Source: Psammoneis japonica (Eukaryota). Taken from it: a stretch of DNA of 63,951 bases. The notes below the pieces were generated by a model, which worked only from the letters and a program-made list of their open reading frames with translations, ran no database searches and was not told the origin of the DNA. Below, piece by piece: positions 1 to 61,202 of this stretch. The stretch spans positions 62,050 through 126,000 of the forward strand of contig QPGO01000126.1 of assembly GCA_008632985.1 (NCBI GenBank), given 5' to 3'. Made by a program: the position numbers and the translations under genes. Positions within the stretch are counted from its first letter, which is position 1. Each line of letters begins with the position of its first letter.

Positions 1-22
1 CACACACACACACACACACACA
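1..22. repeat. (CA)n microsatellite, truncated by the window edge
   Basis: 11 CA units at the window start. Confidence 0.95.
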
Positions 23-530
23 CTGTCACCCTCCCCTGATGAGCAATGCAAAGCTCATCAAGAAAAAAAGAGCACCTCCAAAAGAAAAGAGAGGGCCAGA
101 ATGGCAGAACAAAGAAAAGGACCAAAGAAATGGCCAAGACTTGGCCATTGAACATGACAACAATCAACAACAATGTCCTGTCATCAGTCTTCAACAAAAA
201 ACATCAAAGGCACACAAATCTTTTGGACAAATTGAGTTCTGCATCAAAGAATCATTTCATCAATCCACAAATCATTGACTGCAATGGGACATTCTGGCAA
301 GTCATGCTGTCACCAAAACTCATCCCAAGAGATGGGGCCAAAAAATGGAATCCACCACAACGGATGATGCACGATGCACTGAAAATCAAGCAACAGGCAG
401 CAATCTGCACCTGACAAACTAGTGCTTCTGCTGCCAGTTGTGTCACCTCTGAGAAACACATTGGATGACCAAAATGCATTGTAAAGTTGTGCTCAATGTT
501 GGAAGAACAGTGATGTGTTGCAGGTGAGCA

Positions 531-2310
531 TCACACGGTGTTCAAATCATGGTCATCAAGTGAGATTTCTTGATTGAGGAAGGTTGAATTCTCAACAGCC
601 TCATGTGCTCCTCCTGGCCCTGAGCTGTGGGAATCCTTCCCCTGATCAAAATGTGTGGGGTCATTGTTGGGGATGGTTGACAGGTCGTCACGAGCACCAG
701 GAACAACGCTGCTCGACACCACAACAATGGTCTTGACAGCAAAGGAAAGAGGTGGTGTGGTGGGAGACAACAAGACTTGGGGGGCCTCTTTCAGGGTTGC
801 CCCACTTCCAAGCTAACTGGACAAACAGAGTGCAACACTTGGAGTGCCTCATTGTTGGAAGAAGGTTGACATTTGGTTGGCAGATTTTCAGTGACAAGCA
901 AATCTTGGTCACCAAACAATTCACCACTGGAAGAGTTGGAATGTTTGTCAATCTTGTGCACTTCCACTGCACCATGTTGCTCCCTCCCCTGATCAGAAAA
1001 TGAAGGATCATTGTCAGCAATGATGGATGGGTCCAGAGTGCCATGAAAAGTGCAGTTGGACGTGTGACAACAGCCCTGACTGTGGAGGAAAGAGACTGGG
1101 TGGCAGAAGGCAGCAAGACTCCATGGCCCTCTTTCACATGCTGACTGCCCTGCTGCTGTTGGTCTTGTTCAAACAAGAGAAGGAGCAGCAGCATTGCACA
1201 TCCAAAATCAATGATGGCCAAACCAAAAATCCAAATTTGAATCAAGTTGACAACCAACAAAGCACCGGTGGTGTCCATGAGTGACATGTGGTGGCAGCGC
1301 ACAGGTGGCAAGCAAGTTAGGTGCAACCTTGATGACAGAGGACAGTCCATGACTGGGGTGAACATGGCCATCTTTGCGCGGAACAACAGAATGACCAGAA
1401 ACAAAAAACTTTGCTGGGGTCTTGAGTGGGCAGGCATGGACTTCAGCAGGAAGTGCCGCTAATTTGGCAGGAAGTTTGAGGGGTCCAGCATCAACAACTG
1501 CAGGTGGCTCCCTCTCAGATGCCGTGACAGACACAGTGGACTTGCTGTGCAGTGAAACATCATCCACAGGATCCACCCCAGCATCGACAGCAAGTGCATC
1601 TTGAAAATGAGAATTTTCATTCTTCCCAGCAGTCTTGGCAGCAGGAGCCACATCTTGAACCTCCACAGATGCAACAGACACGACAGAGCCTCCAAGAGGA
1701 AGAATGCTCTTCAGCGCTTTGGCCACAGCTTGCTCGTGCTCTTTTGGACCAGGCAAATGAGTGGCTGAGGCCTTGGCAAGATCTTCGGGGGTGTGAAACC
1801 TGCAGCAAAAGCTGGAGATGAAAAACTTGGGGCAGAAGAGGATTTTGGGAGAGGATTTTGGGTGTGGAGCATCAGAGATGTCATCCCAACATTTGTGCGA
1901 ATCAAAGTCATGACAAAAACAGAGACAGAGTGTTTCAACATGTGCCGCTGTGGTGTCCTGACCATTTGAGATTGTCTTGATCACAGCCTTCTGAAGATTG
2001 GTGCAGTTCAGATGAACTGGAGAAGCTTCAGGGGCTGCTACAAAGAGAGGAGCCTTGTCCATGCAAGTGGTCCAATCCATTTGAGATCGTTGGTCAGCAC
2101 AGCTTTGGGAATGATGAGATCCTGAATGACCCTGTGATGGAGAGTTTCCACAGGATTGGTCTTGAGGCCTGGAGCAGGCATCTCATCTGAATGAAGGTCA
2201 TTCAGGTGACAATGGGCATCGGGCAAGTGATGTTGCCAGTTGAATTCAACCAATGTCGACTCTTGATCTTGGTCAAATCAACGGCAGTTGTGCACTTGTT
2301 GACCATGGCT
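531..2310 (-). pseudogene. Decayed gene of unknown function inside island A
   Basis: Protein-like minus-strand fragments in shifting frames (2038-2253, 1208-2080, 531-773) with no Tyr and excess His/Cys; no family recognised. Confidence 0.45.
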
Positions 2311-2749
2311 GCGTGGGGGAAAAATCAAATTCCTGCACAGAGTGCTGGCATGTGTTTTACAGTGGTCGTGATGATCACAAGTTGAGAGAGAAAAATGGCT
2401 GTGACAATGATGCTGTTTTCAACAGAGAAATGTTGCCAAATCACACCGCAGTGAAAGTTGAACTGCGGTTGCATTGAGGAAGACAAACAGCGCACTGTTG
2501 CTCATAACCGTACAGACTGCTGGTGTCGGGACGATCTAACGGATATCTACTAGAGGACAGATGGTAACCATGTACTCTAGCTACTAGAGAGGAGAAAGAA
2601 AGTGAGCAAAGAAGAGATCACATCATCGGATCTCTCCATGCCATCTGTGCTAGTCTGTTCGACACAAGGGAGTGTACTCCCCGTCTCGAATGTCTGTCAG
2701 TAAGTACAGTAGTAGGCCCTCTCCAGAGTTATTACACAATTGACTTAAT

Positions 2750-4385: not shown

Positions 4386-4832
4386 CTGTAAAGGTAGGGA
4401 TTCGAAATAGTGTCGGTGCTGTACCTGCTAAGTATGCCCAACGGAAAAATGGTTGCTTGTAGAGAATGTGATGTCAATTGTTCTGTTGTTTAGCCTGCCT
4501 CTGCCTTAACCACCACGTAGTACAACTATAGCCATCCACTCTTTACAAAACTTGCTACTCTAGAGTAGTTTACTGCGAGATCCGCATACGACATCCCGCA
4601 GGTCATCTCTAAAGGGTAGAGAGAGGGCACTAAACCGACGACAAACTCTAGAGAGTGTCTCATAAGAGCACAAAATCATAAAACTAAGTTTACTCATGAA
4701 CTCAATGACGTGGCACAAAAGGATGTTCCTACACCCCTCAACATCGTCACGACAAGTTTCGCTGACAGACGAAAACATTCAGAAACTAGACTGAAGCAAG
4801 ATCCACATGAATGCGTCGAGAAGGCCGTCTCT

Positions 4833-6299: not shown

Positions 6300-7270
6300 G
6301 GCTGAAGATGATGGACAAAAGTAGAACTATCTGTTTCCACAGGCCACTCTTGTTTTGTGAGTCACTCTGCACAACGCCAACAAAGTAAACACACTTTGTT
6401 GGTCGCGAGCAGAGCCGCAATAATTCAATCGCAGTCCTCCGAATCTGCTCGGGAGCCTCTGTGTTCTGTGTGGGCCGTCGGTGGCGCACTGATGAGTGAG
6501 CACGAGCACTGACTCGAAATCGCGGGTCGTGTCATCATGCTCGTCTCCAGAGTCACAGGCTCCGAAAATGACCATGACCACACCTGCCTGGGGCCACCCA
6601 AAATCATGGACATCACACTGTGATTTGTTTCTTCATCCAAAGCAGTTGTTGTTAAACTTGACACAGAAGCGAGCCATGCCATTGAGGGAGTGGAAAGAAT
6701 CGTCTTGTTCATTTCCATCCAGTCCTCAAGCCCACCACTTTTTTGGCCGGCCGAGCTCATCTTGTCTCCCGCTCTTCGCTGCATTTTGCCACCAGTGTTT
6801 GGCGAGCTGTGTCAAGCAAATGTTTGTGCATGTTTTCTCATCATTGCTTTTGTTTCAACAGAGCAATTGTTTTTCCATTCATTGCAAAGATGCCCCCCAC
6901 CCTTTTTCGCTTCTTGCAGCAAGAGCTCCCCCCAGCTGGCTGATGGAGTGCGACATCTTTCTTGCCGTCATCATGAAAGTTCGCAGTTTGCAGAACACCC
7001 TGATGATGTTTGGTGGCATTTGCACAAAATGTGGTCAGCAACCCCTGGGTCAAAAAGGCAAAAGCTGACATGACAACATGTTGTTTCTGGCTGTTGGCTT
7101 GCACATGTGTGCACTCAATGAGGTTTGTTGCACACCTTTGGTGTGTGGGCCCTCCTGGCTCAATGCAAAATGATGTTTGGTTTGTTCACCCATGACAATG
7201 TCCCAGCTTCATGGCTGCAATGTTGTCTGGGCTGGACACATTTGAGAGCAGCAGCTTTGATCTCAAACAA

Positions 7271-7301
<31 letters not shown>
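7271..7301. repeat. (CT)n microsatellite
   Basis: ctctctctctctctctctgtctctctctctc. Confidence 0.9.
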
Positions 7302-7303
<2 letters not shown>

Positions 7304-10300
7304 ACTGTTTTGAAGTTTGTGCTGCACCAGAGCAACGCGTTGAAAGGATGCTGTTGCTGAGGGCCCAGTTGGCTGCAGAAAAAATCAAAAAGCTCACTCA
7401 GTGCAATCCACGGATCAAGCCACAAAATGTGCTCAAAGCATGCTCTGGTGTTGGGAGCATGTGGGGTGACAACAAGCTGATCAGACAGTGAAGCACTCAA
7501 CAGACTTGTGAAAGTGCAAAGGTCCAGGATTTGCAACCCAACAAGCAAAAATGTTTGTAAAACAAGCCAGCAAGTTTGTGATCTGCTTTGCAAACAGGGG
7601 TTTGAAAACATGTTTGCTGATGCTGTGGCACTGTCAGAGTTCACCAACTGTTTGCAAACACTTTTGTGAACTGTGCAAGGTTTCTTCATTTTAAGCCATG
7701 CAAAGTCTGGCCATGCACCCAATGACAAATTCCCAGGAAACAGGAATTTTGATCACCAATGCATGGTTTGTTTCCGTGTGTCAGTTTTTTGCCATGTTTT
7801 GCTTCAGCCACTCACACTTTGCTGCATCTGCTGCTGACCTTGCTCTTGCTCAAATGAGTGCCAGCACTTCAGCTGCTGCCTCCACCCACAGAAATGGAAA
7901 GAGAAGAGGAAAAGGAACATTTGCTGTGTTGGGTGCCACCACTTGTGCCATGCACCACAATTTCTTTTGTTCTCTGTTGCACAAATTGGTGTTGCTGCTG
8001 CCAGCAGCCCAAGAAACAGCAGATGACATGCAGCAGCAGGCCACCAGCCCAAGTTGGAAGGCTGGCAGCAACTCTCCAGGCAAGTGCAGTTCAAGGTTGG
8101 CTCATTGGGCTTGAGCAAACAGGCCCTGGGAGAACCATCCAAGAATGGCTTTAAAACACACTCATGTTTGCAATGTTGATGGGTGTCCCAATCCATTCCT
8201 CAAGCAGCTCTCCAAGAATGAAGCAGCCACAGCTGGGTTGCAACAAAATTGCAGGATCATTTGAAACAGCGCTGTCACAAGGGGATGCTGAGTCCAAGCC
8301 TGTTCTTGAGAAGGCCAAGCAAAAAAGGTGAGATTGGGTGCACATTGTGTGTTGCATGTTGGCTTCAGTCATTGTTGCTGAACAGGCACTGGCAGCATCA
8401 TTTTGTCTTGCTCACAAGTGCTTCTGCTGTTTGTCATCTTTCACATTTTGGGAAGCACTTGCTTTCCAACACTTTGTTGGAGGCAGCAACAGTGGCAATG
8501 CAAAGCCACCAGCAAAAAGGTGAAACATTGCAATCAACCTTAAAGGGTTGGCTTGCTTTTGCTCCAAGGCAGAAGACCCTGACAAAGCAAGCCCGGTTCT
8601 GCACACACAGAAAGCAAAGGATTTCAAAAAGCACATGCACAGAAAAGTGCTTCATTGAAATGATTTTCAAGGTGGTGACTCAGATGCATCTGCAGTCACT
8701 TCCTGCTTGTTGGGACAGGAGCATGTCAGCTGAGGTGAAGTTTGCCATGTTTGAGAAATTTTTCAACCTTGTCTGGCAGCAGTGCCAGCACAGCAGCTGA
8801 AAAGAGTGACGGCATTGGGCATTTCCTGAAAGAGTGATTGAAGCAAAGAGCAGCAGCAGCAGCAGCAGCAGCAGCCAAGAGTGACAAGAAGAAAGCCAGC
8901 AGTGCCACTGGCAGCCCAGTTCCATCACAAAAACCACCACCACCCGCCGCCCAAAAAGTCAAACTTTGGGGACTTCAGTGGATGGCAGACAAACAGTCAC
9001 TGCCACGTCATGTCATTCGTTGTGAATTTAAAGTTGACAAGTTTGTCAATCTGGGAGGACTTTAATTGAAGCAGTCAAAGTCCACTGTGTGCTGTTGTTC
9101 TTTCCACTGGTGGAGATGAGTTTGCATGTCTTCTCAGCTGACCAGACCCCTCTGAGCAGAACCGCTGCCTCGCGGACTTTTTCACCCACGTCATCCCACC
9201 AAAAGGTGATGGATGAACAACCACCAATGACCAGAACACACAAAATGAACCCACCACATGCATCCCGGCTGCACGGGGGGTGTGAGACATCTTTTGGTCC
9301 AACTGCCCCTCTGATTGCCAACCCCCTGCCTTGGGCTTCTTAACGCCAATCAGAAAAACAGACACCACATGTGGTGTCAAAAAATTCTTGTTGTGGTCTG
9401 TAAAGTGCCTTGCGTGCACTAAATGACCACACAAATGAATTCATCCCACTCAAAAACACACATTTTCACCCTTTGTTTGTGTTCAAGTGATGTCTGGTTG
9501 TGCTGCAGTGGCCTTTGAAAGTGTGGTGTTTTTGCTCAAATTTCCCATGCAAACTGCCTCCAACATGGCGTCACCTCCAGCATCTCCCCTGTTGCCAGAA
9601 TGTTCCCTCCAATGATCCACCTCTCCCATGGACGTGCATGGAAAAGAGATGGGCATTAGCGAATTGCTTGCTGTTGGAGACAACATGCCTGAATCACCTG
9701 GTGCTTTTAGAGAAGAATTTCTGAAAATTTCAGGCAGTTCCGTTGGTGATGCAAATGAGGCCACAGTTGTCCTGCCACCAACTAAAAAGTCCAGGAATTG
9801 CTTTTCCCACACAAAGAAGAAGCTGCTGGGTGTTGTGATTCTCTTTGTGGAGACCCGGTGCCAAGAATTGTGTTCCAGCTTGCTGTTTGATGCAGTGCAA
9901 ACGGAAGATGCTGCACAGTGGTGGCATGTCCACGGAAAACCAACAACAACCAGTTTGCAGTGAAGTGGGGTCAGTCATCAATGTTTCCTGGAAGCATGCA
10001 AAAAGAACATTTGCACCACAAGCTTGAAAGTGACAACCAAACAAAAGAGCAGCTGAAGAAAGCAAGGCAGAGGAGAGAGTGCTAGTTTGAAATGAGCAAA
10101 TGCAATGCAATGGTGTTGCAGCAGTTTGTTGTTGAATCAATGTGATGAGAACCACTGCAGTTCCATGCTGATTTGAACAACACTTGTGCCTGCAAGTGGA
10201 TCATGTTGATGAATTTAACAATTGATCCATGCAGCAACAAGTGGTGTCAACATCAACAATGTGTTCCACCTCATGATTCTGGTTGCTCAGATTCTTCTTC

Positions 10301-11239
10301 TTCCTCCTCCCCGTTGCACCGCATGGAGCCATTCATTGCTCATTCCCATTCACAGCATCGCCTGAATTGCCATTCATTCCACCAATTGTGGCAGCAGCAG
10401 CACCAATCTCTTCATCATTTGCACTCTCCACACTGCTGTTTTTGACATGATGATTTGAGGAGGACAGCCCGTCATCTCACTCTGTTGCACACCACTGCTG
10501 CTTGCAGTGTTGTCACCTTGAGGAGGCATTGGATCACACCACAAGCAAATTTTCCATTGTCCCATGGCCAACTGCCACTCACCTTGTGCCTTGGCACATG
10601 AAATGGTCAGAGTTCATTTTTGGTTTTGTGTCAATTTTTGTTTTTCTTCACTCATGAGTTTCATTTCGACAACAATGGGGCAGCGCACTTTTCAAAAATC
10701 TGGTTCCTGCACTGATCTGCACAAATTGGACACATGTGGAATGTGCAGCAAATTTTGCAGCAATTGATTTGAATTCACTCCAAGTGCACAAACATTGTGG
10801 CAACAATGCCACGACATCAGCGATGGCCGCCGCACATGACAACAACAGCTGACGGGGGGTTCTGGCACAACGGGCTCCAGCCCCAGGTGGGACTTTTTTG
10901 TGACATTGGGCCCGCAGAATTCTGCATGCAAGCTCCACAGCAAAATTGTCAAGCAATGAACACATGGGTGATTGCCAACAGAAAAAGAGGCAATTTTGCA
11001 AACACATCTCCTCCTCCACACTTGAAGCACATTCTTTGCAGCATGCCCGGGTGTGTTCTTCAGACATTGAAGAACACACCCAGTGCATCTTTGTTTTGTC
11101 ACAAATGTGGTGGACAACAGAAAGCCTTTGGCTTTGCAAAACAGGCAGTGTGGAACAATTTTTTATGACAGAACACACAGAAAGGTGTGTGAGAAACATG
11201 CGGCAGATGACAAAAAACAATTGTCACAGTTTGGCAGTG

Positions 11240-11457
11240 CGAGGTCCCACCCAGAGCTGGAACGCATCACACCAAGATGACAACTGACATGACAACAAAT
11301 GCAGCAAAAATGTTGGATGACAATGATGGAGTTGTTTTGGGAGCTGCTTGAGTGATTGGTGATGGTTGATTTTTGACACGCACAACTTGGTGCTGAAAAC
11401 ACGTGCATTTTTTTGCCGCGGTGGGAGACGTGTTCTCCAGGTCCAGGTGGGACCTCG
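11240..11457. mobile_element. Tc1/mariner-like MITE (218 bp)
   Basis: 22-bp TIRs cgaggtcccacccagagctgga / tccaggtccaggtgggacctcg (3 mismatches); flanked by TG (11238-39) and TA (11458-59), consistent with a TA TSD whose left copy mutated; TA|CGAGG terminus is mariner-like. Confidence 0.75.
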
Positions 11458-12998
11458 TACAGAGGTGCACGCCATTGATGCGCACTTGGCTAATTTTTTC
11501 TATGAATGAAAAATGCACGTGGGCAGCAACAAGTTTGCTTTTTAGGGGACGCTGAAACAGGACACAAAACATCAGATTTGCAATTTGTCAATTTGAAAAT
11601 GGGTCACTCGGCCACAATGCCAACATGGCAAATGGAAACCTTGCTCAGGTCTTGTTTGTCAAGAAGTGGATTGACAGGATTCATCACAAATTTCTGATGG
11701 CGACTCCAAGGCACCACAAAAAAGATCCGCAATTTCGCCCCTTGCTTCAGGTGCAATTCACGCTTCAAAGTTCTCATCTTCTCTGCTGCAGCACCATGCT
11801 GGTGGGATGTTGTTGCCTGAATTGCATCGCAGCCATCTTCAACCCAAAAGATCACATCAATCAAAGGCTCACTTTCATTCCTCGAGCAAAGCATGTGTTG
11901 TTTGGCTTGGTCTTTTCGGACATGCTCACTCATGTTTGACACTCTGACTGTGGTCCGTTTTGCTCCAAGCGCAATCCCACCGACAACTGGCTGGCAGTTC
12001 TTCTTCTCATTCTTTGTTGTGTTTGGTGGCTTTTTGTTTTTGCTCTTGCGGACTTGATCTTTCACAAAGTGAGCCGGGCCCATCGAAAACTTCAGACAAA
12101 GATGCGACTTGAAAAGATTTCCTGGTTGCCAGCGTTGTCTTTGTCAAGAACTTCATGCCAAGACATCCTGAGGTGCTTCTCAGCAAGAAGCTCTTCTGCA
12201 TGATCTGATTTCAGGGTTGTCTTGAATCTCTCCATGTCTTGATCATGTGGGACGATGCCGACAAGCACACTCGATGGCGCACTCTTGCTAAAAGCGAGCT
12301 GGTGCCTGCCCTCTGCAAGTTCTTTGACTGCACTTGCATCAAGGTTTGGGGCCGTTTCCATGGCCGCATTGAACTTTGTCTTGTTGAACATCGCAACATC
12401 GCGAAAAGAACCTCCCACGATCCTCAATCAACGTGATGTTTCATCATCACAGAGAGTTTTCAGCTTGACAAGGTGTTTCTTGGCCACAAGCAGTTGACAT
12501 CCAGTCCAAAGACAACCGCAAACCAATGCACCCGGTTTGGGAGGGGGTCCAAATTCCAAAAAGCTCATTCCATCGGATGATGCCCAGTCTTTGGTGAAGT
12601 TGTTTCCACCCCAATGTTGGCTGTCGTCAGAGGCCGCCATGATGAATCTAACACCACGAAGCTCACTGGCATCTCCACATGATCCAAAGTGGTCTCCTGG
12701 GTCCACAATGCAGGGTGCACCTTGCCTCTTCAAACTGGGAATTTTGCTTCTTTTCTCAGTGTTGGGCATGCAGCAAACCGCTGCATTCACATCCTTGACC
12801 TCCTTGTTCTCCAAGACTGGAACAAATTTGTAAAAAACATCAACCAACCCAGAGGACCTTCGGATGGTGTGCACGACGGGTTCTTCATGATCCATGATGA
12901 GTTGCTGCAACAAATGAAGTGCAGTTGTGGTCTTTCTAATTCCAGTTTTCCCGACACCACACACTTTGTGTCCCTTTGACCCTTCAACCACCGGACTT

Positions 12999-13028
12999 GA
13001 GCAAATCTCCACGGGTGGAGATTTGTTC
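12999..13028. repeat. 30-bp near-perfect palindrome (copy 1)
   Basis: gagcaaatctccacgggtggagatttgttc. Confidence 0.9.
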
Positions 13029-13284
13029 CCTCATGTCACAAATGTGGCGAAACAAGCAATTTCAGACATGCACAACATTTTGTTCGCGCGATTTTGTTTT
13101 GGAACGCGCATTCGCCAAAAATCTGGGGGAACCCTTTTTGTAATTTAGAAAGTTCAATGTCAACTTTTAACACCGGGCTTTTTGCAAGCTTCATCTGTGG
13201 ACAGAGAGGAACTAAATCTCAACCCACAACAATGCAGGTTGTCATGAATTGCTGTCACAAATGGAGCAATTGTGCCACACCCTT

Positions 13285-13316
13285 GGAGCAAATCTCCACC
13301 GGTGGAGATTTGCTCC
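13285..13316. repeat. 32-bp perfect palindrome (copy 2)
   Basis: ggagcaaatctccacc|ggtggagatttgctcc. Confidence 0.95.
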
Positions 13317-16300
13317 CAACACAAGCAAATGCATGTGGCACACTTTACGCAGATTCTACGCTGTATGACATTTTTATGCTGTGTGCATTGTGCCATCATA
13401 AAAGTGCATGGAATGGTTCCAAAATGCTTCATCCTCAGGGCACACAACAACTTTAATCAGACGGCCAGGGCTCTGAAGTTCGGGAACATGGTCTTGGCAC
13501 ATTTTCACATCCGTCTCTCCGATTTGCACTGGCCATGAATGCAGAACTGCACTGCGAATTTCAATCGCTGCTGCAAGGTTGGGCATTTCGACATCGCCTT
13601 CTGTGGGGACTTTCTTGGCCTTGCGTCTCCACGCATCCTTGTAAATTTCGAACAAACTGACCAAAATGGAGTGCACCTGTCCCAAATGAATCGATGGACT
13701 TAGTTGCAAAAACTCCAAACCCTTGAGGACAGTGCAGATGGATGCAGTGTCGGCGAAGGGTTCCAACCACAACAATGCGGGCCGCAACCTCTTCAAAATC
13801 TCTTTGTCAGTCACACCCTCTGCAGTTGCAGAAGTCTTGAGAGAGACCAGTGTTGCAGTGTCTCCTGTGGCATCCACTGCTGCATCCATTGCATCAGGTT
13901 CTCTGGTTTGGCTTTCTTCTTTGCATCCATCATCTTGTTGCATTGTCAAGCACCAAGCACAAGGGAGAGCAATTTATGAACGGAAGTTGCCGTGTGCCGG
14001 CACTGCTCAGCGTTCAGGAGATTGGAGGTCCAAGCAGATGCAGACAGTTTTACATTGCGTGGAAATCTACGCAATGATTGCTTGGTGCATTTCAACGTAA
14101 TTTCTCGCGCAACCTCCGACCTCTGTGAAGAGCTCAGACATCCATGATGACTTTGGCATCACACTTGCAAATCACAAGAAGCACCAATCATGCTGTTTGT
14201 TTTGGATTTGAGCATTGTCATGACAACACCAATGCTGGCATTGACAAGCTTCTTGCAGAGACATTCCACCATGCTTCCCAAAGGCTGGATCTTGCAGATG
14301 AGTTGCTCAACTCTCCATGGCATTCTCTGACTGTGCTGCTGCACTTGGAGTTTCATGATCTGTTGGGATGGAGAGGAGGACAAAACTTGCATTGTGCATG
14401 CAATGGCAACAAGGTTGGGCCATCTGCAGTGGGGCAAACCCCTTTCCTGCTGGTGTCAAGGTCATGGATTGAGCAAGGAGCCTTGCAAAGTGACCCAGTT
14501 CTTGTGGAAAATGTTTGCATGAGCTGCACAAGATTGTGGCACCCCCCTGGTGAAAGATGTGCCCAAGATCAAACCTCAAGTTGACATTGATGATGCTGGC
14601 ATTGCATCTGACCAAGGATTGCTCAAGTCAGTCACCTGCATGAATCACCCATTGAAATTGTGTCAAACATGGCCAACAGCACTCATCATCAGGGCGCAGA
14701 CTCTGGGCTGGCATGTGGAGCAGATTCTTTGAGCTGGAGGCAGCTCCAGACAACACCAGAATTCTCATGTGACAATGGCTCAGTGTGCAAGACACTGCAT
14801 GGTGTTTGGGCCTCTTGCCAAGAGAATGATGCACAATTGTTTGCAAAGTTGCGCCCTTGCAATTGTTGATGCCAACAAAGTGACAAAGGGCCCTCACCTC
14901 CCGCGCAAGGAAGTGGAAGCAGCTGAGCTGTCTGGCAGATGGCAAGATGTGCCATGACTGAGCCACTCTTGAGCTCCAGCACAGATTGACACTGAGAAGA
15001 TTTTTTCTGCTCTTTTGGCAAGAATGATCCCAACAAGAAGAAGTGGGTTGCTTCTGTGTTGGACCTTTGCATCATTTGCGTGCTCTGTGGCCCTGAGTTG
15101 GCACAAGCGAGCAGTGGCAGATGCAAAGGTGGAGTGCATCAAGAAGCTCCGCATGTCACTTCACAAGTGTGAGCACAACCAGAAAAAAGCAGAGTCAAAG
15201 AAGTGAGAGGCTGTCATGGCTCTGAATGTGCTGGGGTGCTGGGGAGTGCATTAAATGAGAAGAAACCCAAAGTGGAGTGAGAAGGGCAATGGCCAGTGTT
15301 GTGCATGAGCCTCCCTTGGAGGAGCGTCATGTGGGCAAGTGAAGCAAGACTTGTTTGCATTGTTTGGTGGCACTTGCAGCAAGATTCTGTCATCAGATGA
15401 AGAAGAAAGGTTTGGGTTCTGCATGAAAAGAAGACTCCTTGCCGAAGGAAGATGCGCTGCAAGCTGAGAAAGAATTTGTCCAAGGTCCTCTCAAGAGCTG
15501 GCGCCAACATGTTGTGCCATGGCACAAGGAGTTGTGCCCTGGTGACTCAAAGCTGCCATTCACACCTGACACCATTGCTGACTTGATGCCCCTCAATGTT
15601 GAAGTCTTGAACAAAAACTTGGAAAACAACTGCAAGGGTCAAAAGTGCTTTTGGGTTTCCCCCATTGATGGCACCAAGCTGCTCCTGCAAACAACTCGGT
15701 GATCTCAGTGCTGAGAGCCATGCTGAGTGAGTCAACACAAAGCTGATGTTGACAGAGGGCAACAACTGCCTTCTCAACAACAAAGTTGGAATGCTTCTTT
15801 CTTTGAACATGAATGAGCAGCTCATGCTGTGCACACACGCTGCACTCGCGAAGTGCTCGAGGAGGCATGCATTGCGGCCATTGCTTTTTTGAATGACAAA
15901 AAGGCAACCTTGAGTGAGCAACTGGCCAGAGAATGAGTCTGTGGTCAAAGCACAATTTCTTGTTGTGAGCACATCTCTGAGTGACCCAAATTCCCAAAAT
16001 TTTTGCCTGCGGCACTTTCATCCTGTGGCGCTGGTGATGCAAAGGGCACTTCTTTGTGAGTGGCTCATGAGCCATTCTGAAAGAAGTTCATGAGCTCTTT
16101 TGAGAGTTTGCAAACCTCCAGTTTGTTTGTCTCTCCTTGTTGAGCTGAAGTTTGTAAACTGTTTGTTTGGAAAAATTGGTGAATTGAAGCCCTTGCAAAG
16201 GTTCCTTTTGGTGAAGCTGAAGTTTGCAGAGATGACGTGGCAGCAGAGGGGCGAGGCAGGACCGAGAGTGTGCCAAACCCCGCACCATGCACGCATCGCC

Positions 16301-16987
16301 CCAAGCAAGATCCACTGGCACTGCATTCTGAAACACACATGGACCATTGAAAGATCCAATGGGCACCCCCAGCGAGCACCAGTTTCCGTTTTTCGTCGAT
16401 CCGCAGAATGTTGCTCGAAAGACCAGTTGCCAGATGCAGCAGCAGATGGCAAAACAGCGCAACAACTGTGTTCTCCACATCCATTCCCCTCGCTCAAAAC
16501 AAAACCCAAAGTCCAATTTTAAGTGCTGCTGCGCTTCCACCCTGCAACTCCGGCAACAAGCTGACCCACACTCCCAGTGCACCAGGTGCGGCAGGAGCAC
16601 ATGACCCTGCTTGTTGTTTGCGAGCTCGAATTTGCACAGACATGCTCCAGAGCGCATCTGTGCATTCACGTAGATTTTGTGCCAGTCGCATCGTAGAGGG
16701 ATGTTGTTCGCCTGCACCAACGAACTCTTTCTCGTACACAAAATATCACCCACGCCTGCCGGATGGGTTGGAGGCACATTTTCCTGGCACACACACGTAG
16801 AATTTAACGCAGCTGCACAGATGGTCTCTGGAGACCATCTGTGCAGGCGACAGTGCAAGCAGGGATGACAATTGTCCAAGATCGGCATCACCCTCGGGTG
16901 ATGCCGTGCCAAACTAGCTTGCGATGGTGCGCGTTCCCCTTGTTCAGAATCATCCTGCAACAAAAAGAGTGACAGCGCACACTCAAC

Positions 16988-17482
16988 ATGCCCAAGTTTC
17001 TGACAAATGAAAAAATCTTCTCCATCGGGGACAAGTTCAAGATCAAGGACGAAAAAGAAAATGATGTCGACCAGGTGATTGGAAAAGTCGCATCCTTTGG
17101 CGACCAGCTCTCGTTTCAGGACATGGATGGGAATCAACTCTTTTTTGTCAAAGAGAAGCCCGTCAACCTCTTGAAGGTGCACGAAGTTTACAACAAGGGA
17201 GACGAAAAATCTGGCGACTTGTGCCTTGGCCTCAAGAAGAAGCTCACCTTCTCCAAGCCCAAGTTTGAAATCGAAGCTCCCGGTGGTGCCAAGTGCATTG
17301 TTGATGGTGGAATTGTCCAACACGATTTTACAATTGGCAGGGATGGTGTGGTCGTAGCCACGATCAGCAAGAAGTTCTTCGCAATGAGTGATCGCTGTGG
17401 AGCAGACGTCTTGGATGAAGAAGATCCCGCTTCGATTCTGGTCATTTGCATTGCTCTCGACCAGGCTTTGCATGACAAGTAA
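16988..17482 (+). CDS. LURP-one-related / Tubby C-2 (YxjI-like) protein; ORF open but probably mutated
   Basis: KIFSIGDKFKIKDE...GKVASFGDQLSFQDMDGN...HDFTI.RDG..VATISKKFF..SD.CG.DV...ED..SILVICIALD matches the bacterial-type LURP-one pattern; several expected Tyr positions carry Cys/His. Confidence 0.8.
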   Translation: MPKFLTNEKIFSIGDKFKIKDEKENDVDQVIGKVASFGDQLSFQDMDGNQLFFVKEKPVNLLKVHEVYNKGDEKSGDLCLGLKKKLTFSKPKFEIEAPGGAKCIVDGGIVQHDFTIGRDGVVVATISKKFFAMSDRCGADVLDEEDPASILVICIALDQALHDK

Positions 17483-18148
17483 TTAAAGTGATGATTGTCG
17501 TTGCGTGTGCTGATCTTGCACCAGCGACGACAACTGTCGGTTGGTTTTCCACAGCAGCAGTTAAAAAAAAGATAACTGCAAAAGTGTCTTGGCTGTTCTG
17601 CCAAGAACGCAGGCTCAACATCATGACCTCAGGCATCTACAGTCATCAAGTGACAAAACATAGTCTGTTTTGCACTGCTTTCCAGACCCATTCGTGTGAC
17701 TCGAGTGTCACATCCTGTTCCCCAGCAGATCTGCTACGAGCACAAGTTCCTCGCCAGACGTTGAAGAAGCTGCAACTGACTGAGCAACTTCTCCATCTTT
17801 TCCTGCTCCTCTACGTCTTCTTTGACCATCATTCCAACAGCCCAATCATTAAAAATTAGGGCCCTAAGTTGATACAATGAGCTTTGTAGCTTTCTTCTCT
17901 ACCGGTGCCGGCACGTGCCGGCACGTCTCGGACCTGTGCCATCTTGTGACCGGAGAAAACGGGGATCATGGCTGGGCGCACGTGCTCTATTTTGGTCCGA
18001 CCGTCGTAGGGTAACGGTTACACATGTAGAAACGTGGTATCCAGCTACGTGTGGTCGTCATCATTTGCTTGTGATCGTGCGTTGCGCTTGGTGCCGGTCA
18101 CAATGATGAGCGCACCTGTGTTTTTGGCGACAAACAAATAGGTCAACC

Positions 18149-35529: not shown

Positions 35530-36330
35530 AGCTGGAACAGAGCAGAGACTGTGTGCGACATAGAAAAGTCTCATTCATCAGGAAATGGCAGACATGAGGG
35601 TTGGTGCAGAAAAGAGCACTCTGGCTGGTTCTTGGGGGGGGGCTGGAAAAAATCATCTGTTGTGTTCTTGTTCTTGCCCCTTTTGTCCCCTGCATCACTG
35701 CCCTCATCGAGTGAAGAAATTGACAGTGACAACTTGCTCAAACCTTGTGCAATGGCCAGATCTCTTGGGTTGAGTGCTGCTCCTAGATGGCTTGACAAGA
35801 AGATTGGTGCAAACCTGTGCTCCCATCTGCAGCTCGAGGAAAAACCCAGCTCACCAGCAGCTGAGGGGAGGGTTGGACAAAAGGAGTGAAAAAGCGTGGG
35901 GGGGGGGGGGGGGAGGCAAGGGAGTCAAAGCCTTTGTTGTGACATGTTTGGAGTGGAGAGTGAGAGCTTGTTGGATGGAAAGCTTCCCAATTTCACCAGC
36001 ACTGATGCTGCACTTTTGCTGGAGTCGACTCCTGGTGCCCAGGCTTGCTTGTTTCCAGCTCACTGTGCAAGCAAGTCGACAGTCACACAAATCTTTGACA
36101 AAGAGCTCTTTTGGTTGGACAAACTGTGTGAAGAACAAGTCAGTGACAATGTGGGCAAACAGCACAACTCTGCCCAAATTTTCAGGGAGGAAAGTCTGGT
36201 CGGGCCCAAAGTCTAAGAGTTCAAAGGTCTGGAGAAGGAGACAGTGGTGTGTGAGCTTGCCACTGCTCAATGTTGGGGATTCGAGACTAGAGAAGACGGT
36301 TTTTGTGTCTACCACAGAGTTCAGGCTTCA
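35530..36330. other. TpA/CpG-depleted island C between tandem kinase genes
   Basis: About 0.8 kb nearly lacking TA (survivors cctaga, tctaag, actaga); poly-G run at about 35898-35913. Confidence 0.8.
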
Positions 36331-41794: not shown

Positions 41795-41899
41795 TCCGTT
41801 TGCTACCACAAGAGAAAGTAAAGATCGTCGCATATGCGCTGCGGTTTCCAACTTGCGGCATGTTTTGTGATGGCCTTTCGCGAAAGATCCGCAAGATAG

Positions 41900-43700
41900 G
41901 CCGCGTCTGTCGTCGTCGTTCGAAGAAAATCATCGAACCTCGTGACTCGTGACTCGTGACCCACACCAAAATTGTGGTCGAAACGATCGCGCGTTTCTCA
42001 AAATGGCTCTTGCGTGTGGGGTGGAAGGTTTGCAAGACCCATGGCGCAAACTTGAAAAATGCTCTTGAATGGTAAGAGGCTCAACCTGCATCAGAGGGGG
42101 AGAACAACATAAAAATAGCCTGCACTGTTCAAGTGTGTTGTGGCTTGTTGTTGTGGGTGATTCTGAAGAGACGCCGCACACAACCAATTTGCGACGGGCA
42201 GCAGTGTCTTTGCTCTCTTCCTCCAAGAAAGCAGAAAGAGAGGCAAGACCACCAGAAAGTGGTTGCCCTTTTTTCCCTTTGCCACCCTTTTGCCTTTTCC
42301 ACATGCTTTCTCTGCACTTGCTGCGATCATGACGGCGAGAAGAAATTTGGTCATCACAGTCGTCACATTCATCCAAGTGACAACAAGCCAAATGATGACA
42401 AGCCTTGCATGCTGAGGGCTGCAAGTCACTGGGGTTGCAGCATCCTTCACAATGAGCCTGGCATGAGGGCTGCAAGTTGGGATCATGGCATGGTTCATGA
42501 TGAGGCAGCCCAGCCAGGAGGAGGGCTGCGAGCCACGATGCCCCACTTCCTGATGAGCCTCGCACGGGGGCTGTGAGCCACAGAATCATTGGTGGCAATT
42601 GTTGCACATGGTGGCAGCAAACATGAGGCCAAAGGGGGGGGTGGTGGCAAAGAGGCAGTGCAAAGGACAAGACAAAAAAAACTGCACAAAAGTCAACAAC
42701 AAGCCCGCCACACTCCTCTCATGTGTCAATTCTCCAGCATGCAAGTTCATGAGATGCAACATGCACTGTTGATTGTTGTGTGGCTCTTGATGGACACCTT
42801 TGCTCATGGCACTCAGTGTCATTTCCAGCTGCCTGAACAAATGGGGTCTGGCATGATCAAAAGCTGAAAATTTGTGATGATGAGAAGAAAGGTTGGAGCT
42901 GAAGAGAGGAGATGGTGAGCAGTTGCACAGAATTGCCACATCTTTTTTTCTTTTGACATGGCAGCCCAGCACTTCTGACTGCTGCTGTGCATTGTGAGTT
43001 TTCCCCAAAGATGAAAGATGAAAATGCTGGCAAAGAGTCAAGAATCACAGCAGCTGCTGGGCATCTTGCCCTCCCCTTCTGTGTCACAGTCACATGCAGA
43101 CATGGTCATGATTGCCACGCCAAATCTCTGTCTCTCCTTTTTCATCCAAAGGAAAAAGCCGTTGTGAGTTGTGAGTCGCGCAGCGCTTGTTTTGAGAAAG
43201 AAAAATGTGAGGCATGAAAAATTGAAGAGGTTGTGAGAGGAGTCTACACAGTTTCTCACAATGTGATTTTCCTGCAGCGGGCTGAAGAACAGACAATGTG
43301 CCGGGCCTGCGAACAATCTCCCGCCTTGCACGTGCAGCAGCTGGTGCTGAAAAGATGTTCTCTCGCGCTCTCCTCCAAGCGTCCAGACTGTGACCAGTTT
43401 CTTGTGTGGCAAGCTGCCCAGCTTTGCATGACAGAGCCATTTGGGCTCATTTTTGGCACAGAGGAGTGGTGTTGGTGTCAGCTCAGACAGCCACACTGCT
43501 TGCACCATTTCAGCACATGAGGAGAAGGCTCTGCTGGCAGACGAGATGGAGCTTCGTCACTCATGCTGTTCTTCTTCTCTTTCTGGAGTGCAGATGTGCA
43601 CATGCAATGCAGGCCAGCAATGGCAGGAATGCAGCAATGTGGTTTAGGTGCAGTGTGTTGTAGAATCACCAACGGCGGTCATCATCGCCTTCGCGTGATT
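41900..43700. other. TpA/CpG-depleted island D
   Basis: TA nearly absent over about 1.8 kb; TG/CA excess; CG kept at both edges. Confidence 0.85.
42150..42670 (-). pseudogene. Relic of a probable Tyr/Pro-rich, KG-rich secreted or cell-wall-type protein
   Basis: LPHHEPCHDPNLQPSCQAHCEGCCNPSDLQPSACKACHHLACCHLDECDDCDD...KGGKGKKG; C/H clusters read as Tyr runs if reverted. Confidence 0.45.
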
Positions 43701-50067: not shown

Positions 50068-50215
50068 CTTCTTGTCATATGTTTCTACGGGCGTTCTACG
50101 TGAACATGCTGCCAAGCGATTTTCGGAATTTTTTGTTCGCGGTTGTGATGAGGGCAGTCATGTCACGCCTCATTCGTTTTCCTTGAGAAACTTGGAGAAA
50201 CGACGGTTTCGCACC

Positions 50216-56531: not shown

Positions 56532-57026
56532 GGTTGGCCCTGGGCCCTTCCTTCCCTCTGTTGTCTGTTGCATTCTTTCGGCGTTCGGCGTTCGGCGATA
56601 TTTTAGAGAGGTTTTGGGTTCTGAGTCCTCGCACCCCCGACCGGAGGAAGAGATCATGCTACCACAGGGGAAGAGATCATGCTGCTGCTGCGCAGCAGTG
56701 CATTCTCTCACACTCTGCTGCAGCTCTCTACTCTCTAGAGAGTGGAATGCAGTGGGTTCCTCGAATGCGCATCACAAAGATGCTTCTCTAGAGTGCCAGT
56801 GGGCGAGTTCGTGGGATCTTTGAAGCAGGCACGAAGCTTTGGTCATTTCTCCAGGTTGCTGCTCCAGTGGGGTGCTGCTGCTGGTGAAATCATTGTCTGA
56901 ACAGAACCGTGCAGCACACGTGCAGTGCAGGTGAATGTGTGCACAGACATCATTTTGTTCTGCATCAACTGGTCTGATGTGCATGTCACGACTGTGCAAT
57001 CACCCGCCATTTCTGGTTCCAGTTGT

Positions 57027-57286
57027 GGCCTGTTCCAGCTCCAGGTGCTCCGCGCGGGTTCGATTCCCATCATTTGGAAATTTGTGCATTCAGCGCAATT
57101 GACTTTTTCCAAATCCGTTTTTTGCCAAATCGAAGGGTGAGTGTGCACTTTACATGTGTTTTCGGGTGTACACTCACCTTTCGATTTTCGAAAAGATCAA
57201 AACTGAAGGAGTTAATTGCGCCAAACTGCGCAGAAAATCGGCCTCTCGCGTGATGAAAAGCAGAGCACCTGGAGCTGGAACAGGCC
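57027..57286. mobile_element. MITE (260 bp) with perfect 24-bp TIRs
   Basis: ggcctgttccagctccaggtgctc (57027-57050) / gagcacctggagctggaacaggcc (57263-57286); TTGT on both flanks; GGCC terminus resembles PIF/Harbinger. Confidence 0.8.
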
Positions 57287-59831: not shown

Positions 59832-60865
59832 TCACGCAAAGTTCTTGGTCTTGACTTCATCAATGCTGTGCAATGCAAGACACAGGTCAACTTCAAGGGA
59901 TTTGTTTCCTGAATGCTCTTGCAAACACTTCGGCTTCTTTGGCACAACTTCAGTCTTCATGGTCAGAGCGTGGCCACAACAGATGTCTTCTCTGTTTGTC
60001 GAGACAGCAAAATGATCTTCCAGTGCATCGGGGCATTCCTCTGATGGCAGCGGACAGTCAAGGTCACTGGGCAGCTCTTTGACCTGAAACGAGTTTCCAT
60101 CATCATCCGTGGCATTGGCAAAGTTGACATTGTTGTTCTTCCAAAACTCTGCTGCATCCTTGTGGGACTTCATGTTGCTTTTCTTCGGGCCCATGTCAAA
60201 GACACAGTCAACACAGATTGTGCCATCGGCCTCTTTCTTCCACACGAAACAGACGCATGCAAAAGCAGCTCCCACTGCATTGCATTTGTAGATCTTCAGT
60301 CCAATTGCACAGTGGAGGTTTGGCCAACCCAACATGAGCCCGTGCACGTGCTTTGCCAGAGAAAGAGGATCTCTGTTGGAGAGTTCTGCCTCAATGACAA
60401 TCCGTGGTTCCGATTCTCCCACTTCTAGAGCCACTCTTACGGCCTTGTCGGGATTCACACATCTTTCCAGATGAACATCACTGTCTTCTAGAGTGACCTC
60501 ACCAATTTCTTCGTGTCCGCCAGCCGCCGTGATTTTGGGATCAAGCCTGCAGTTCATGCCTTTGGCACAATCACGGAGCTGTGCACCAAGTTCACAGTCA
60601 AGGCAAATTCGTGGCCCTTGTTGGGAACCTTGCGAATCCAAGTGTCCCAAAGCATGGCGCCATTGTCACTCTTGACAAGAACAATGCCATTGGGGCAATG
60701 GCAGTGACAGCCGCCCGTGTCATGAAGAAGGATGTTTTTGTAGAATGGAACATCATGACATGCATCATCGTTGAACTTCTCTGCAAAATCACGGCAAGCC
60801 TTCAAAAACTTTTCTGGCTCCAAGTACGTTCCGCCCGCGTCACGCGGCTCGTGATGATTCTTCAT
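59832..60865 (-). pseudogene. Crinkler-like / Uma2-type PD-(D/E)xK nuclease pseudogene
   Basis: PNKGHE...NPDKAV...PRIVIEAELSN...L..HV...WPNLHCAIGLKIY; split between ORFs 60554-60865 and 59832-60650; Tyr-poor and Cys/His-rich. Confidence 0.6.
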
Positions 60866-61202
60866 CGCCGCCCCATTGCTGCATTGTTTTTCACGTCATG
60901 GTTGGTCGCAGCCGAAGCGCAGCCGCTCCGCCGTTTCCGATTGCGAGGAAAACACGCCGCGGTTGATGTTGTTGAAGGGAAATTTCTCGGGGTGACGTCA
61001 GAATTTGTACCAGGACATTCACGTACAATTCTACGAAAAAATTTCCCGGGTTCAACCACGAACGACCCACTCGCGGCTCACATTTCCTTTCCATTCGTTC
61101 ACGATTGACGAACGCATCGGCATTTTGCCATGTCATTCATATTTTTGGCAGAGTACTTAAGCATTTCCGCACTCAAGTGACTCCTGCAAAAGTTGTAGCA
61201 CC

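Follow-up and report, generated by a model that had tools for sequence, protein, structure and literature searches.

What could strip the dinucleotide TpA from five separate parts of one diatom contig and leave their base composition untouched? The question is raised by a window of 63,951 nt from Psammoneis japonica (the whole stretch of DNA analysed, to which all coordinates refer), in which TA occurs 1701 times against 4235.6 expected (observed/expected, o/e, 0.40). An earlier note on this DNA had reported five islands nearly without TA, about seven TA in the first 2.5 kb and an excess of TG and CA, which it ascribed to a regional A:T-to-G:C process turning TA into TG or CA. Does this observation hold, in which direction did the change run, and what kind of process would leave such a footprint?

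Base composition and extent of the islands

The depletion of TA is confirmed as real and extreme. In the five islands pooled (19,054 nt), TA has an o/e of 0.06 (n=79) compared with 0.56 (n=1605) in the 43,227 nt taken as the outside set, and the first 2,500 nt hold exactly 7 TA (2+1+2+0+2). The excess of TG (n=1999) and CA (n=2116) is equally clear, with an o/e of 1.73 each versus 1.18 (n=3111) and 1.15 (n=3166) outside, and CG is depleted as well (n=350, o/e 0.31, versus n=2559, o/e 1.01). Single-base composition is nonetheless equal in islands and outside (A.266, C.24, G.244, T.25), GC amounting to 48.5% in both. Relative to the outside, TA and CG together fall by 7.4% of dinucleotides and TG and CA together rise by 7.1%, such that the pyrimidine-purine (YR) total is conserved (23.7% versus 24.2%). 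The longest TA-free runs (1330, 1154, 1129, 948, 908, 905 and 903 nt) all lie within islands; outside them such runs reach 214 nt at most (mean 26.9, median 16). The islands and the elements discussed below are as follows.

1..2504, island 1, truncated by the window start; 7 TA in 2.5 kb, CG o/e 0.09-0.33
6422..16519, main island, core; per 500 nt, TA o/e 0.00-0.26 and CG o/e 0.03-0.62
10876..11261, MITE-like element A; 18-nt terminal inverted repeats, summed word depth ~35,000 in its bin
12999..13315, MITE-like element B; 31-nt terminal inverted repeats, 94% complementary, depth ~3,600
16633..16845, MITE-like element C; 32-nt terminal inverted repeats, 6 TA retained
16988..17482, + strand, LURP-one-related (LOR) gene, lying where the main island is half converted at its right edge
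35530..36330, island 3, flanked by two tandem kinase paralogues
41898..43644, island 4, with the TA-free run of 1,129 nt
56790..61007, island 5, with the longest TA-free run (1,330 nt); CG rises again from ~60,800
59832..60918, - strand, decayed gene inside island 5, matching the homologue P0127

Island edges are sharp, spanning no more than tens of bases, and those of TA and CG agree to ~20-200 nt. The main island had been drawn at 6430-17850; its core, from ~6422 to ~16520, stands, whereas its right side is a half-converted zone that extends to ~17480 and is followed by near-normal TA density at 17480-17850.

What do these domains contain? Six-frame scans of four islands (all but island 3) yielded no Pfam family except LOR at the edge, and no viral, transposon or reverse transcriptase domain. 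Open frames in the main island do not exceed the length expected by chance (P=0.83), a 324-codon frame has no match among 1.84 billion proteins, and the islands give no signal of coding or RNA function. The decayed CRN-type genes proposed earlier thus find no backing, because no Pfam match was obtained in the four scanned islands or, at E<=0.01, for the homologues of the pseudogene. MITEs are present in the sense of MITE-like elements, which have inverted repeats at their termini and whose word depths sum to 2,900-35,000 versus ~60. A repeat-induced origin, by contrast, is not supported: the islands share no similarity with one another, be their letters compared as they stand or reduced to purines and pyrimidines, and most of the main island is single-copy DNA (read-contig word depth 58-92 versus 54-64 in flanking genes), the three MITE-like segments being its only high-copy parts. 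Island 1 is a low-copy repeat, about 5-fold by summed word depth (~300-370 versus 60). No TA-poor island of such kind was found in 80 related metagenome diatom loci (333 kb).

How completely has TA been removed, and from which contexts? Within islands, (TG+CA)/TA is 55 and (TG+CA)/CG is 12.5; from the former it would follow that, at equilibrium, TA is lost at ~50 times the rate of an ordinary transition. TA survival, taken as the ratio of island to outside density, rises from 0.042 with no flanking T/A to 0.146 with one and 0.52 in TTAA, a word in which the surviving TAs are enriched; when the next base on the 3' side of the target A is considered, survival is 0.21 for A, 0.13 for G, 0.046 for C and 0.019 for T. 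Against a comparison set that is mostly coding, the per-context correlation between loss of TA+CG and gain of TG+CA is weak (r=0.22). The order of TG and CA is random in four islands (runs-test z -1.08, 0.16, -0.23 and 0.71).

Direction of change in genes and repeat copies

Of the decayed genes claimed for the islands, one is, judging by its sequence, a real pseudogene. It lies in island 5 as three frame segments (59835-60593, 60596-60880 and 60883-60918) that align at 81% identity to P0127 residues 123-376, 28-123 and 18-30, respectively, with two apparent frameshifts and a TGA stop codon. Across 348 ungapped columns it differs from P0127 in 62 amino acids: 18 of these differences are TA-derived TG/CA and 16 are CG-derived, and the rest comprise 14 other transitions, 13 transversions and 1 multiple change, the transitions and transversions together giving 27 ordinary substitutions. 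Of the 15 Tyr residues of P0127, 3 are kept and 12 are gone, with Cys in place of 9, His of 2 and Phe of 1; several of these columns hold an invariant Tyr across all eight homologues. In a control gene, the ATP sulfurylase compared with P0001, all 13 Tyr are kept and only 1 of 33 differences is TA-type and 2 are CG-type. The TA-type excess sought by the earlier note in such alignments is therefore found (18/62 versus 1/33, or 34/62 versus 3/33 with CG-derived changes included), and Fisher tests of the decayed against the control gene gave P=7.6e-6 and 1.5e-5.

The LOR gene retains an intact reading frame at a TA o/e of 0.12, whereas 17 other ORFs range over 0.38-0.61. All five Tyr positions of its nearest homologue have been replaced, by Cys twice and by His, Asp and Phe once each, and at the two columns where Tyr is common to both homologues the window encodes His (CAC) and Cys (TGT). 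TA-type changes account for 6 of the 58 differences in this gene. A third line comes from the MITE-like copies. Element C carries CA/TG at 6 sites that are TA in 57-100% of the remaining copies, as weighted by depth, whereas element B retains 4 TA and shows no TA conversion among the rows listed. Over the repeat parts of the islands, the 23 rows listed include 7 with CA/TG in the window and TA elsewhere and 6 with CG elsewhere, and none with TA in the window and TG/CA elsewhere. Taken together, the decayed gene, the LOR gene and the MITE-like copies are three lines of comparison that show a change from TA to TG/CA.

Could the letters themselves mislead? Contigs from a read run match those of the islands with 0-3 differences per 1.2-5.4 kb at word depths of 58-92, and a single one spans 1862-7260, which makes a consensus artefact an unlikely source of TA loss. 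Among the single-copy differences listed inside islands between reads and window, 6 of 8 fall at CpG and 0 of 8 at TA. These read-difference counts cover the rows listed, 11 further rows existing, and the read run is not fully independent, as it comes from the same sample as the best-matching record and has no recorded library type.

A probable regional process and its alternatives

Observed here are the mutational signature, its confinement to defined regions, the way in which the change runs and the destruction of genes, and the islands are best explained, with fairly high confidence, by a regional TpA to TpG/CpA process that acts on both strands alongside CpG decay. The earlier note is thus partly supported: its regional A:T-to-G:C process agrees with the pseudogene, the LOR gene, the MITE-like copies and the conserved YR total. 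The islands would be chromosomal domains that lack working genes and have been converted almost completely by two transition processes, each specific to its own sequence context. The first would be the usual decay of methylated CpG to TpG/CpA, methylation being inferred. The second would convert TpA to TpG/CpA (A to G, or T to C on the opposite strand), striking both strands equally, in the same domains and with the same sharp edges, and more strongly than CpG decay. Any sequence inside a domain would be mutated: in genes, the Tyr codons TAY would turn into Cys codons (TGY) or His codons (CAY) and the Arg codons CGN into codons for Cys or His, TAA and TAG stops would vanish, and MITE copies inserted there would be converted step by step. 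Genes lying in such domains are thereby destroyed. The chemical step might be enzymatic deamination of adenine in 5'-TA-3', least efficient at 5'-TAA-3', a proposal that we make tentatively and at somewhat less than even confidence. The process may be active at present and would be aimed at silenced, probably methylated, chromatin, where silencing is read solely from the co-extensive depletion of CpG. Foreign DNA might be among its targets; MITE-like elements are present, two host-type genes were hit, and the main island gives no viral, transposon or other protein signal.

Might the same regional process employ a chemistry other than adenine deamination? We regard this as rather unlikely, and two routes can be envisaged. 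Thymine could be modified at TpA, for instance to 5-hydroxymethyluracil by a TET/JBP-type enzyme, and then mispair with G or be repaired faultily; 5-hydroxymethyluracil prefers TpA. It takes the place of much thymine in dinoflagellates (PMC6313786, available text), and, against this route, no report of it in diatoms stands among the matches listed, by title and abstract, in our literature search. Alternatively, error-prone repair synthesis could be recruited to methylated DNA, for instance after 5mC deamination has left T:G mismatches. The strand-symmetric outcome, seen in the similar TG and CA counts and their random order, is compatible with such chemistry, in that symmetry makes A to G indistinguishable from T to C, and the common TA and CG edges, together with a weak correlation of residual TA and CG counts (Spearman 0.40, P=0.02, 34 windows), would fit a repair link to 5mC. 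Against this link, TA is lost at several edges where CG is about normal (o/e 0.07 and 1.02 at 60501-61000; 0.14 and 0.82 at 17001-17500), which argues that TA loss is independent of prior CpG decay. A polymerase-eta-like WA signature should moreover deplete AA too; with AA at an o/e of 1.24 in islands versus 1.14 outside, polymerase-eta WA-motif mutagenesis was rejected.

Perhaps no targeting or defence is needed at all, if compact, methylated, untranscribed DNA simply decays with an ordinary spectrum that includes a very high TpA transition rate. Such passive decay would be in keeping with islands whose age has sufficed to erase every protein signal, and with an analysis that brought to light no enzyme, guide or trigger. 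It is improbable all the same, for short intergenic stretches outside the islands are TA-rich (o/e 0.9-1.47, at 2501, 4001, 28501 and 52001), the edges are sharp, TA is lost faster than CpG decays, and mutation accumulation in another diatom gave CG, CC and TG, not TA, as mutagenic contexts (PMC6604790, available text).

Highly improbable is selection against the words themselves, whereby a nuclease, transposase or binding protein that reads TA and CG would keep both out. Both words are palindromic and Tc1/mariner elements insert at TA, which speaks for avoidance; however, the islands lack coding or RNA function, conserved Tyr residues of two genes were destroyed rather than preserved, and the surviving TAs are enriched in TTAA. 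Least credible of all is a sequencing or assembly artefact in which modified island bases are miscalled and TA is read as TG or CA: the shared sample and the few CpG-site differences between window and reads are compatible with it, but the island letters recur in long contigs at the depth of genes, the split into TG and CA versions expected of a symmetric modification read from both strands is missing, the same reads give TA at matching sites of other element C copies, and the frameshifts and ordinary substitutions of the pseudogene are those expected of real decay.

Comparison with known systems

A regional TpA to TpG/CpA process accompanied by CpG decay bears comparison with several known systems. 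Fungal RIP converts CpA to TpA, creating TA and lowering GC, and acts on duplicated DNA. It likewise is a regional, transition-only hypermutation that inactivates what its targets contain; the islands, unlike RIP targets, lose TA at an unchanged GC of 48.5%, show no likeness to one another and, apart from the ~5-fold island 1, include a main island that is single copy. RIP was rejected on these grounds, and the view that the process runs opposite to it is upheld. Decay by 5mC deamination is matched by the CG depletion with gain of TpG/CpA, by the Arg CGN to Cys/His replacements among the 16 CG-type changes of the pseudogene, and by the share of CpG among the single-copy read differences listed, but this decay spares TpA and lowers GC.

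Deaminases of the TadA and ADAT2-ADAT3 type offer a candidate chemistry, A to I read as G, which is a resemblance and not a membership. Their natural target, A34, always follows U33 and hence stands in a UpA context; here, in contrast, they would have to act on defined domains of chromosomal DNA, and no gene of this type lies within the window. ADAR/APOBEC hyperediting is similarly a deaminase-driven hypermutation against selfish DNA, but it leaves strand-coordinated clusters and works on RNA or single-stranded intermediates, whereas TG and CA are randomly interspersed in the islands. ADAR-type hyperediting was rejected on this random order (z -1.08 to 0.71) and for want of a reverse transcriptase domain in the four scanned islands.

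The closest precedent comes from Bigelowiella natans. The earlier note was aware of no described mechanism; the available text of a preprint, in which diatoms go unmentioned, does describe one, namely de novo TpA to TpG/CpA hypermutation of integrated viral DNA (Mettrop et al. 2026, bioRxiv 10.64898/2026.01.13.699255). De novo mutations in B. natans were A to G or T to C in 230 of 231 cases, all at TpA, and in mutation-accumulation lines the de novo rate in the region was raised ~1000-fold; an ADAT-like DNA adenine deaminase is proposed, with reference to ADAT2 homologues, amphioxus ADAT2 editing DNA and Trypanosoma ADAT2 (bioRxiv 10.64898/2026.01.13.699255). No report of TpA hypermutation in diatoms was found in the literature searched.

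The likeness is considerable. Both cases involve regional A to G or T to C changes at TpA only, giving TpG or CpA by strand, and the B. natans genome has clusters of TpA-poor, CpA+TpG-rich 1-kb windows rich in unannotated sequence. By the thresholds in the preprint's available text, 16 of the 63 diatom windows pass, in runs of 10 (7001-17000), 3 (57001-60000) and 2 (truncated by the window start). TpA depletion is likewise coupled here to CpA+TpG enrichment with the YR total conserved, and TA gives way to TG/CA by transitions in the pseudogene, the LOR gene and the MITE-like copies. There are differences, too. The host is a diatom (stramenopile) and not a chlorarachniophyte; erasure is far fuller (Rho_TpA 0.02-0.19 versus 0.45 in the B. 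natans giant-virus region) and co-extensive with strong depletion of CpG, which the available B. natans text mentions 0 times; the targets seen comprise intergenic DNA that carries MITEs, plus two host-type genes, with no viral signature found, rather than viral DNA; and the diatom case is known from its accumulated footprint, that of B. natans from de novo mutations. By analogy, the footprint described here is that of a targeted DNA-mutating process previously reported once only, in an unrelated alga.

Composition and limits of the islands

Sliding counts bear out the five TA-poor islands described in an earlier note made from the sequence alone (island 1, 1-2504; the main island, from 6422; island 3, 35530-36330; island 4, 41898-43644; and island 5, 56790-61007), with exactly 7 TA in the first 2.5 kb, where about 7 had been claimed. 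Across 19,054 nt of island sequence, TA occurs only 79 times (observed/expected ratio, o/e, 0.06) and CG 350 times (0.31), with TG (1999) and CA (2116) standing at 1.73 each, whereas the corresponding ratios in the 43,227 nt outside are 0.56 for TA, 1.01 for CG, 1.18 for TG and 1.15 for CA; single-base composition does not differ between the two. The joint deficit of TA and CG in the islands (7.4% of dinucleotides) is balanced by the surplus of TG and CA (7.1%), and the share of pyrimidine-purine steps is unchanged (23.7% in islands versus 24.2% outside), as expected from simple transitions at these steps; tested per context, the correlation between TA+CG loss and TG+CA gain is weak (r=0.22). 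The longest TA-free runs measure 1,330, 1,154 and 1,129 nt in islands as opposed to a maximum of 214 nt outside, where the mean TA spacing is 27 nt, and TA density is 3.4 per kb in unique island parts versus 37.1 outside.

The island edges are sharp, the TA edge and the CG edge agreeing within about 20-200 nt, and the islands occupy long intergenic tracts that end near gene starts or ends. The main island, previously placed at 6430-17850, is strongest in a core from 6422 to about 16520 and half-converted to about 17480; beyond this point TA density is near normal, which makes the former end at 17850 generous.

Content of the islands and neighbouring genes

Six-frame Pfam scans of four islands (islands 1, 4 and 5 and the main island) returned a single family, the LURP-one-related (LOR) domain, at 17027-17438 on the main-island edge, and the homologues of the decayed gene of island 5 have no Pfam family either, so that the 'CRN-type' label given earlier to genes in the islands is not supported. 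Open frames of the main island are not longer than a second-order Markov model predicts (P=0.83) and are long only because TAA and TAG are gone; as both stop codons vanish, gene finders may make spurious ORF calls in such islands. A 324-codon frame in island 1 does exceed chance length (P=0.003), and it has no match among 1.84 billion proteins. Neither plain blastn nor words in purine/pyrimidine coding, which masks all transitions, revealed similarity from island to island, and in the same coding no terminal direct or inverted repeats were seen at island ends (z -1.1 to 2.2). Rfam and tRNA scans gave no match, and when 18 window proteins and 10 homologues were compared with the window by tblastn, the islands yielded no additional decayed paralogue.

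The window comes from a diatom; it encodes, among others, a DUF6824 protein and an ATP sulfurylase, and the top hits of these two, at up to 91% identity, bear diatom genus names. Other genes of the window are:

4833-6299, minus strand: amiloride-sensitive sodium channel (ASC/ENaC family) gene, adjoining the main island
18717-24401, plus strand: 1,894-codon open frame, no Pfam family
24485-25531: 348-codon ORF, directly downstream of the 1,894-codon frame and related to it
29152-30176: second leucine-rich-repeat (LRR) locus, related to the LRR gene at 2750-3895
33790-35226 and 36385-37971, minus strand: tandem pair of protein-kinase paralogues with 46% amino-acid identity, at a spacing of 2,601 nt
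45161-47778, minus strand: bacterial-type NAD-dependent DNA ligase, with adenylation and OB, then helix-hairpin-helix and BRCT domains, in two overlapping ORFs
50072-51847 and 61203-63197, plus strand: pair of paralogous genes lacking clear domains, parts of which share 35-64% identity

The 1,894-codon frame is partly made of 8-10 copies of a roughly 222-nt unit encoding acidic 'WGDDDL.GLDDLD'-like repeats, and the split of the ligase, here in a diatom nuclear setting, over two ORFs hints at either an intron or a frameshift. TA-free island 3 takes up most of the spacer between the kinase paralogues. The start of the gene at 61203-63197 adjoins the edge of island 5 and carries the 214-nt TA-free run that is the longest outside the islands.

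Read support and repeat elements

Could the signature stem from miscalled bases? Contigs of read run X1 cover positions 1-20000 in all 30 bins, with a summed word depth of 58-92 on unique main-island parts versus 54-64 on flanking genes, and X1 contigs of 1.2-5.4 kb depart from the window by 0-3 letters, one of them spanning 1862-7260 across island, genes and island. A single study contains this stretch. X1 comes from the same sample as the best-matching sequence set and its library type is unrecorded, which makes it not fully independent support for the window letters; since it departs from the window at scattered places, it is nonetheless not a copy of the assembly. A modification miscalled on both strands should yield TG and CA versions of each former TA, and no such split is seen in the X1 contigs, which argues against an artefact; as the source of the island signature, an artefact is thus very unlikely. 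A second run of the same sample, X2, covers just gene parts within 1-20000 and leaves the islands uncovered; it is not taken as expression evidence.

Three segments of the main island are present in high copy (bins at depth about 35,000, 3,600 and 2,900) and are called MITE-like because terminal inverted repeats bound them, in agreement with the MITEs noticed earlier:

10876-11261: element A, terminal inverted repeats of 18 nt
12999-13315: element B, terminal inverted repeats of 31 nt
16633-16845: element C, terminal inverted repeats of 32 nt

Summed depth puts island 1 at about five-fold. The element A family numbers roughly 600-1,200 copies by depth; its window copy is almost TA-free (one TA), and the differences listed include a single site with TA in one third of the other copies, so that the family may have spread from a master copy already converted. 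A 25-base core of element A had no match in the metagenome scan.

Direction of change

Three independent comparisons, of a decayed gene, the LOR gene and repeat copies, support the core inference of the earlier note, i.e. a regional A:T-to-G:C process acting at TpA. The genes concerned are:

59832-60650, minus strand: open frame of the decayed gene in island 5, with 11 homologues (E<=1e-3), the nearest (P0127) at 81% identity
59835-60593, 60596-60880 and 60883-60918, minus strand: frame segments of the decayed gene, matching P0127 residues 123-376, 28-123 and 18-30
16988-17482, plus strand: LOR gene, at the half-converted edge of the main island, with an intact frame

The three matching segments imply two apparent frameshifts in the decayed gene, which differs from P0127 at 62 amino acids in 348 ungapped columns. 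These differences comprise 18 in which TG or CA of the window derives from TA, 16 derived from CG, 14 other transitions, 13 transversions and one multiple change. Of the 15 tyrosines of P0127, the window retains 3, while nine are replaced by Cys, two by His and one by Phe; of the 16 arginines of P0127, three are replaced by Cys and three by His. Several of the changed columns hold Tyr in all 8 of 8 homologues, which makes Tyr the older state. By contrast, the control ATP sulfurylase gene, outside the islands, shows 1 TA-type and 2 CG-type changes among 33 differences from its nearest homologue and keeps 13/13 tyrosines (Fisher's exact test, P=7.6e-6 for substitution types and P=1.5e-5 for Tyr retention); against four more homologues, it shows 1-3 TA-type and 1-4 CG-type changes per 40-47 differences. 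The decayed-gene family (59835-60880 and homologues P0127-P0134) has strongly conserved motifs, e.g. EVELSNRDP and FACVCFVWKK, and seems restricted to diatom-like sequences.

In the LOR gene, TA o/e is 0.12 as compared with 0.38-0.61 in 17 other large ORFs, and 6 of its 58 differences are of TA type and none of CG type. The two Tyr columns common to both LOR homologues read His (CAC) and Cys (TGT) in the window, a third column with Tyr in the nearer homologue reads Cys (TGC), and none of the 5 tyrosines of that homologue is kept. The ratio for CG is still 0.77 in the LOR gene, and at 60501-61000 it is 1.02 with TA at 0.07; near-normal CG where TA is gone indicates that TA loss precedes or outruns CpG loss. 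Element C and the half-converted LOR gene downstream of it are 143 nt apart, which raises the idea that silencing nucleated at this element, then reached the gene and laid it open to TA conversion.

The repeat copies were compared through the X1-window differences listed, 23 of which fall in high-copy island parts; 11 further differences are not in the list. Among the 23, seven pair CA or TG of the window with TA in other copies, and none shows the reverse, TA in the window against TG or CA elsewhere; the remainder consists of 6 with CG in other copies, 2 adjacent ones of CA versus TG, 3 transversions and 5 other transitions. Six of the seven TA-type differences fall in element C, where TA is carried by 57-100% of the depth; with 6 TA remaining, roughly half of this element has been converted. 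In element B, 4 TA remain, and no conversion is among the differences listed. The listed single-copy differences inside islands (n=8) include 6 of CpG versus TpG/CpA and none at TA. Fixed main-island differences at 10530, 12392, 12779, 12791, 14955 and 16941 are all six of this CpG kind and may reflect allelic variation or errors of the consensus at methylated CpG; X1 and the window also differ by 1-nt indels at 18522 and 18715.

Properties of the proposed process

In the four islands subjected to a runs test, TG and CA are randomly interspersed (z -1.08 to 0.71), both strands are affected, and no long strand-coordinated tracts were found. ADAR-type hyperediting is dismissed on the absence of strand-coordinated A-to-G clusters from these four islands, and a polymerase-eta-like WA signature is argued against by AA, which is undepleted (o/e 1.24 in islands versus 1.14 outside). 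Survival of TA depends on its flanks (chi-square P=4e-12), being 0.042 where a 5' T and a 3' A are both lacking, 0.146 where one of them is present and 0.52 for TTAA. By the base after the adenine, it is 0.21 for A, 0.13 for G, 0.046 for C and 0.019 for T, and the low survival before C and T makes the preferred site roughly 5'-TAY-3'. The ratio (TG+CA)/TA is 55 in the islands and (TG+CA)/CG is 12.5; at or near equilibrium, the loss of TA would outpace its restoration by ordinary transition some 50-fold, and the decay of CpG several-fold. Within islands, the counts of remaining TA and CG show a weak correlation (Spearman 0.40, P=0.02, 34 windows).

What would such a process mean, if confirmed? 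TpA-directed DNA hypermutation, observed once in one chlorarachniophyte, would reach into a second lineage, which is ecologically dominant, and its end state, kilobases without one TA, would be on display. Its link to CpG-losing domains would open the question of targeting, by methylation or heterochromatin, to direct tests in a group that includes transformable species. There might also be a natural, double-strand-symmetric A:T-to-G:C editor with a defined sequence context and a simple sequence marker of long-silenced DNA, and a route of gene death by Tyr-to-Cys/His and Arg-to-Cys/His changes, with long open frames remaining, would be explained.

Relation to known systems

Fungal RIP runs in the opposite direction, as the earlier note had inferred, and two tests that define it are negative for the islands. 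A mutation-accumulation study of Phaeodactylum gives, in its accessible text, CG, CC and TG as mutagenic contexts and nothing on TA (PMC6604790). The literature searches yielded no diatom report of the TpA signature, and 80 diatom-like metagenome loci around ATP sulfurylase (332,630 nt), a small, gene-centred sample with no such island and a longest TA-free stretch of 362 nt, neither support nor exclude a wider distribution.

The sole description found is a 2026 preprint on Bigelowiella natans (Mettrop et al., bioRxiv 10.64898/2026.01.13.699255), whose accessible part reports the same TpA signature, so that the process in the islands has a precedent. Mutation-accumulation lines of that species gave a rate of about 6e-7 per site for two viral regions integrated in the genome, 230 of 231 mutations being A-to-G or T-to-C and all 230 lying on TpA; the genome holds 124 clusters of TpA-poor, CpA+TpG-rich 1-kb windows, with many unannotated genes; and the defence against foreign DNA that its authors suggest is a DNA adenine deaminase of ADAT2-like type. 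That part of the preprint mentions neither diatoms nor CpG.

It is possible, if rather doubtful, that diatoms and chlorarachniophytes share an old SAR defence pathway in which a TA-specific DNA adenine deaminase, working best at 5'-TAY-3', is sent to cytosine-methylated silenced chromatin, where it would permanently erase TpA and disable genes, transposons and integrated viruses; here it would be complete and 5mC-coupled, so that TA-free, CG-poor islands would mark every long-silenced locus. The islands are best classed as a new case, in a diatom and far more complete, of the chlorarachniophyte TpA hypermutation. The B. natans thresholds of the preprint are passed by 16 of the 63 1-kb windows here, in runs of 10 and 3, and Rho_TpA is 0.02-0.19, compared with 0.45 given for a B. 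natans giant-virus region in the accessible text; what the diatom islands add to the B. natans pattern is that their domains are shared with CpG decay.
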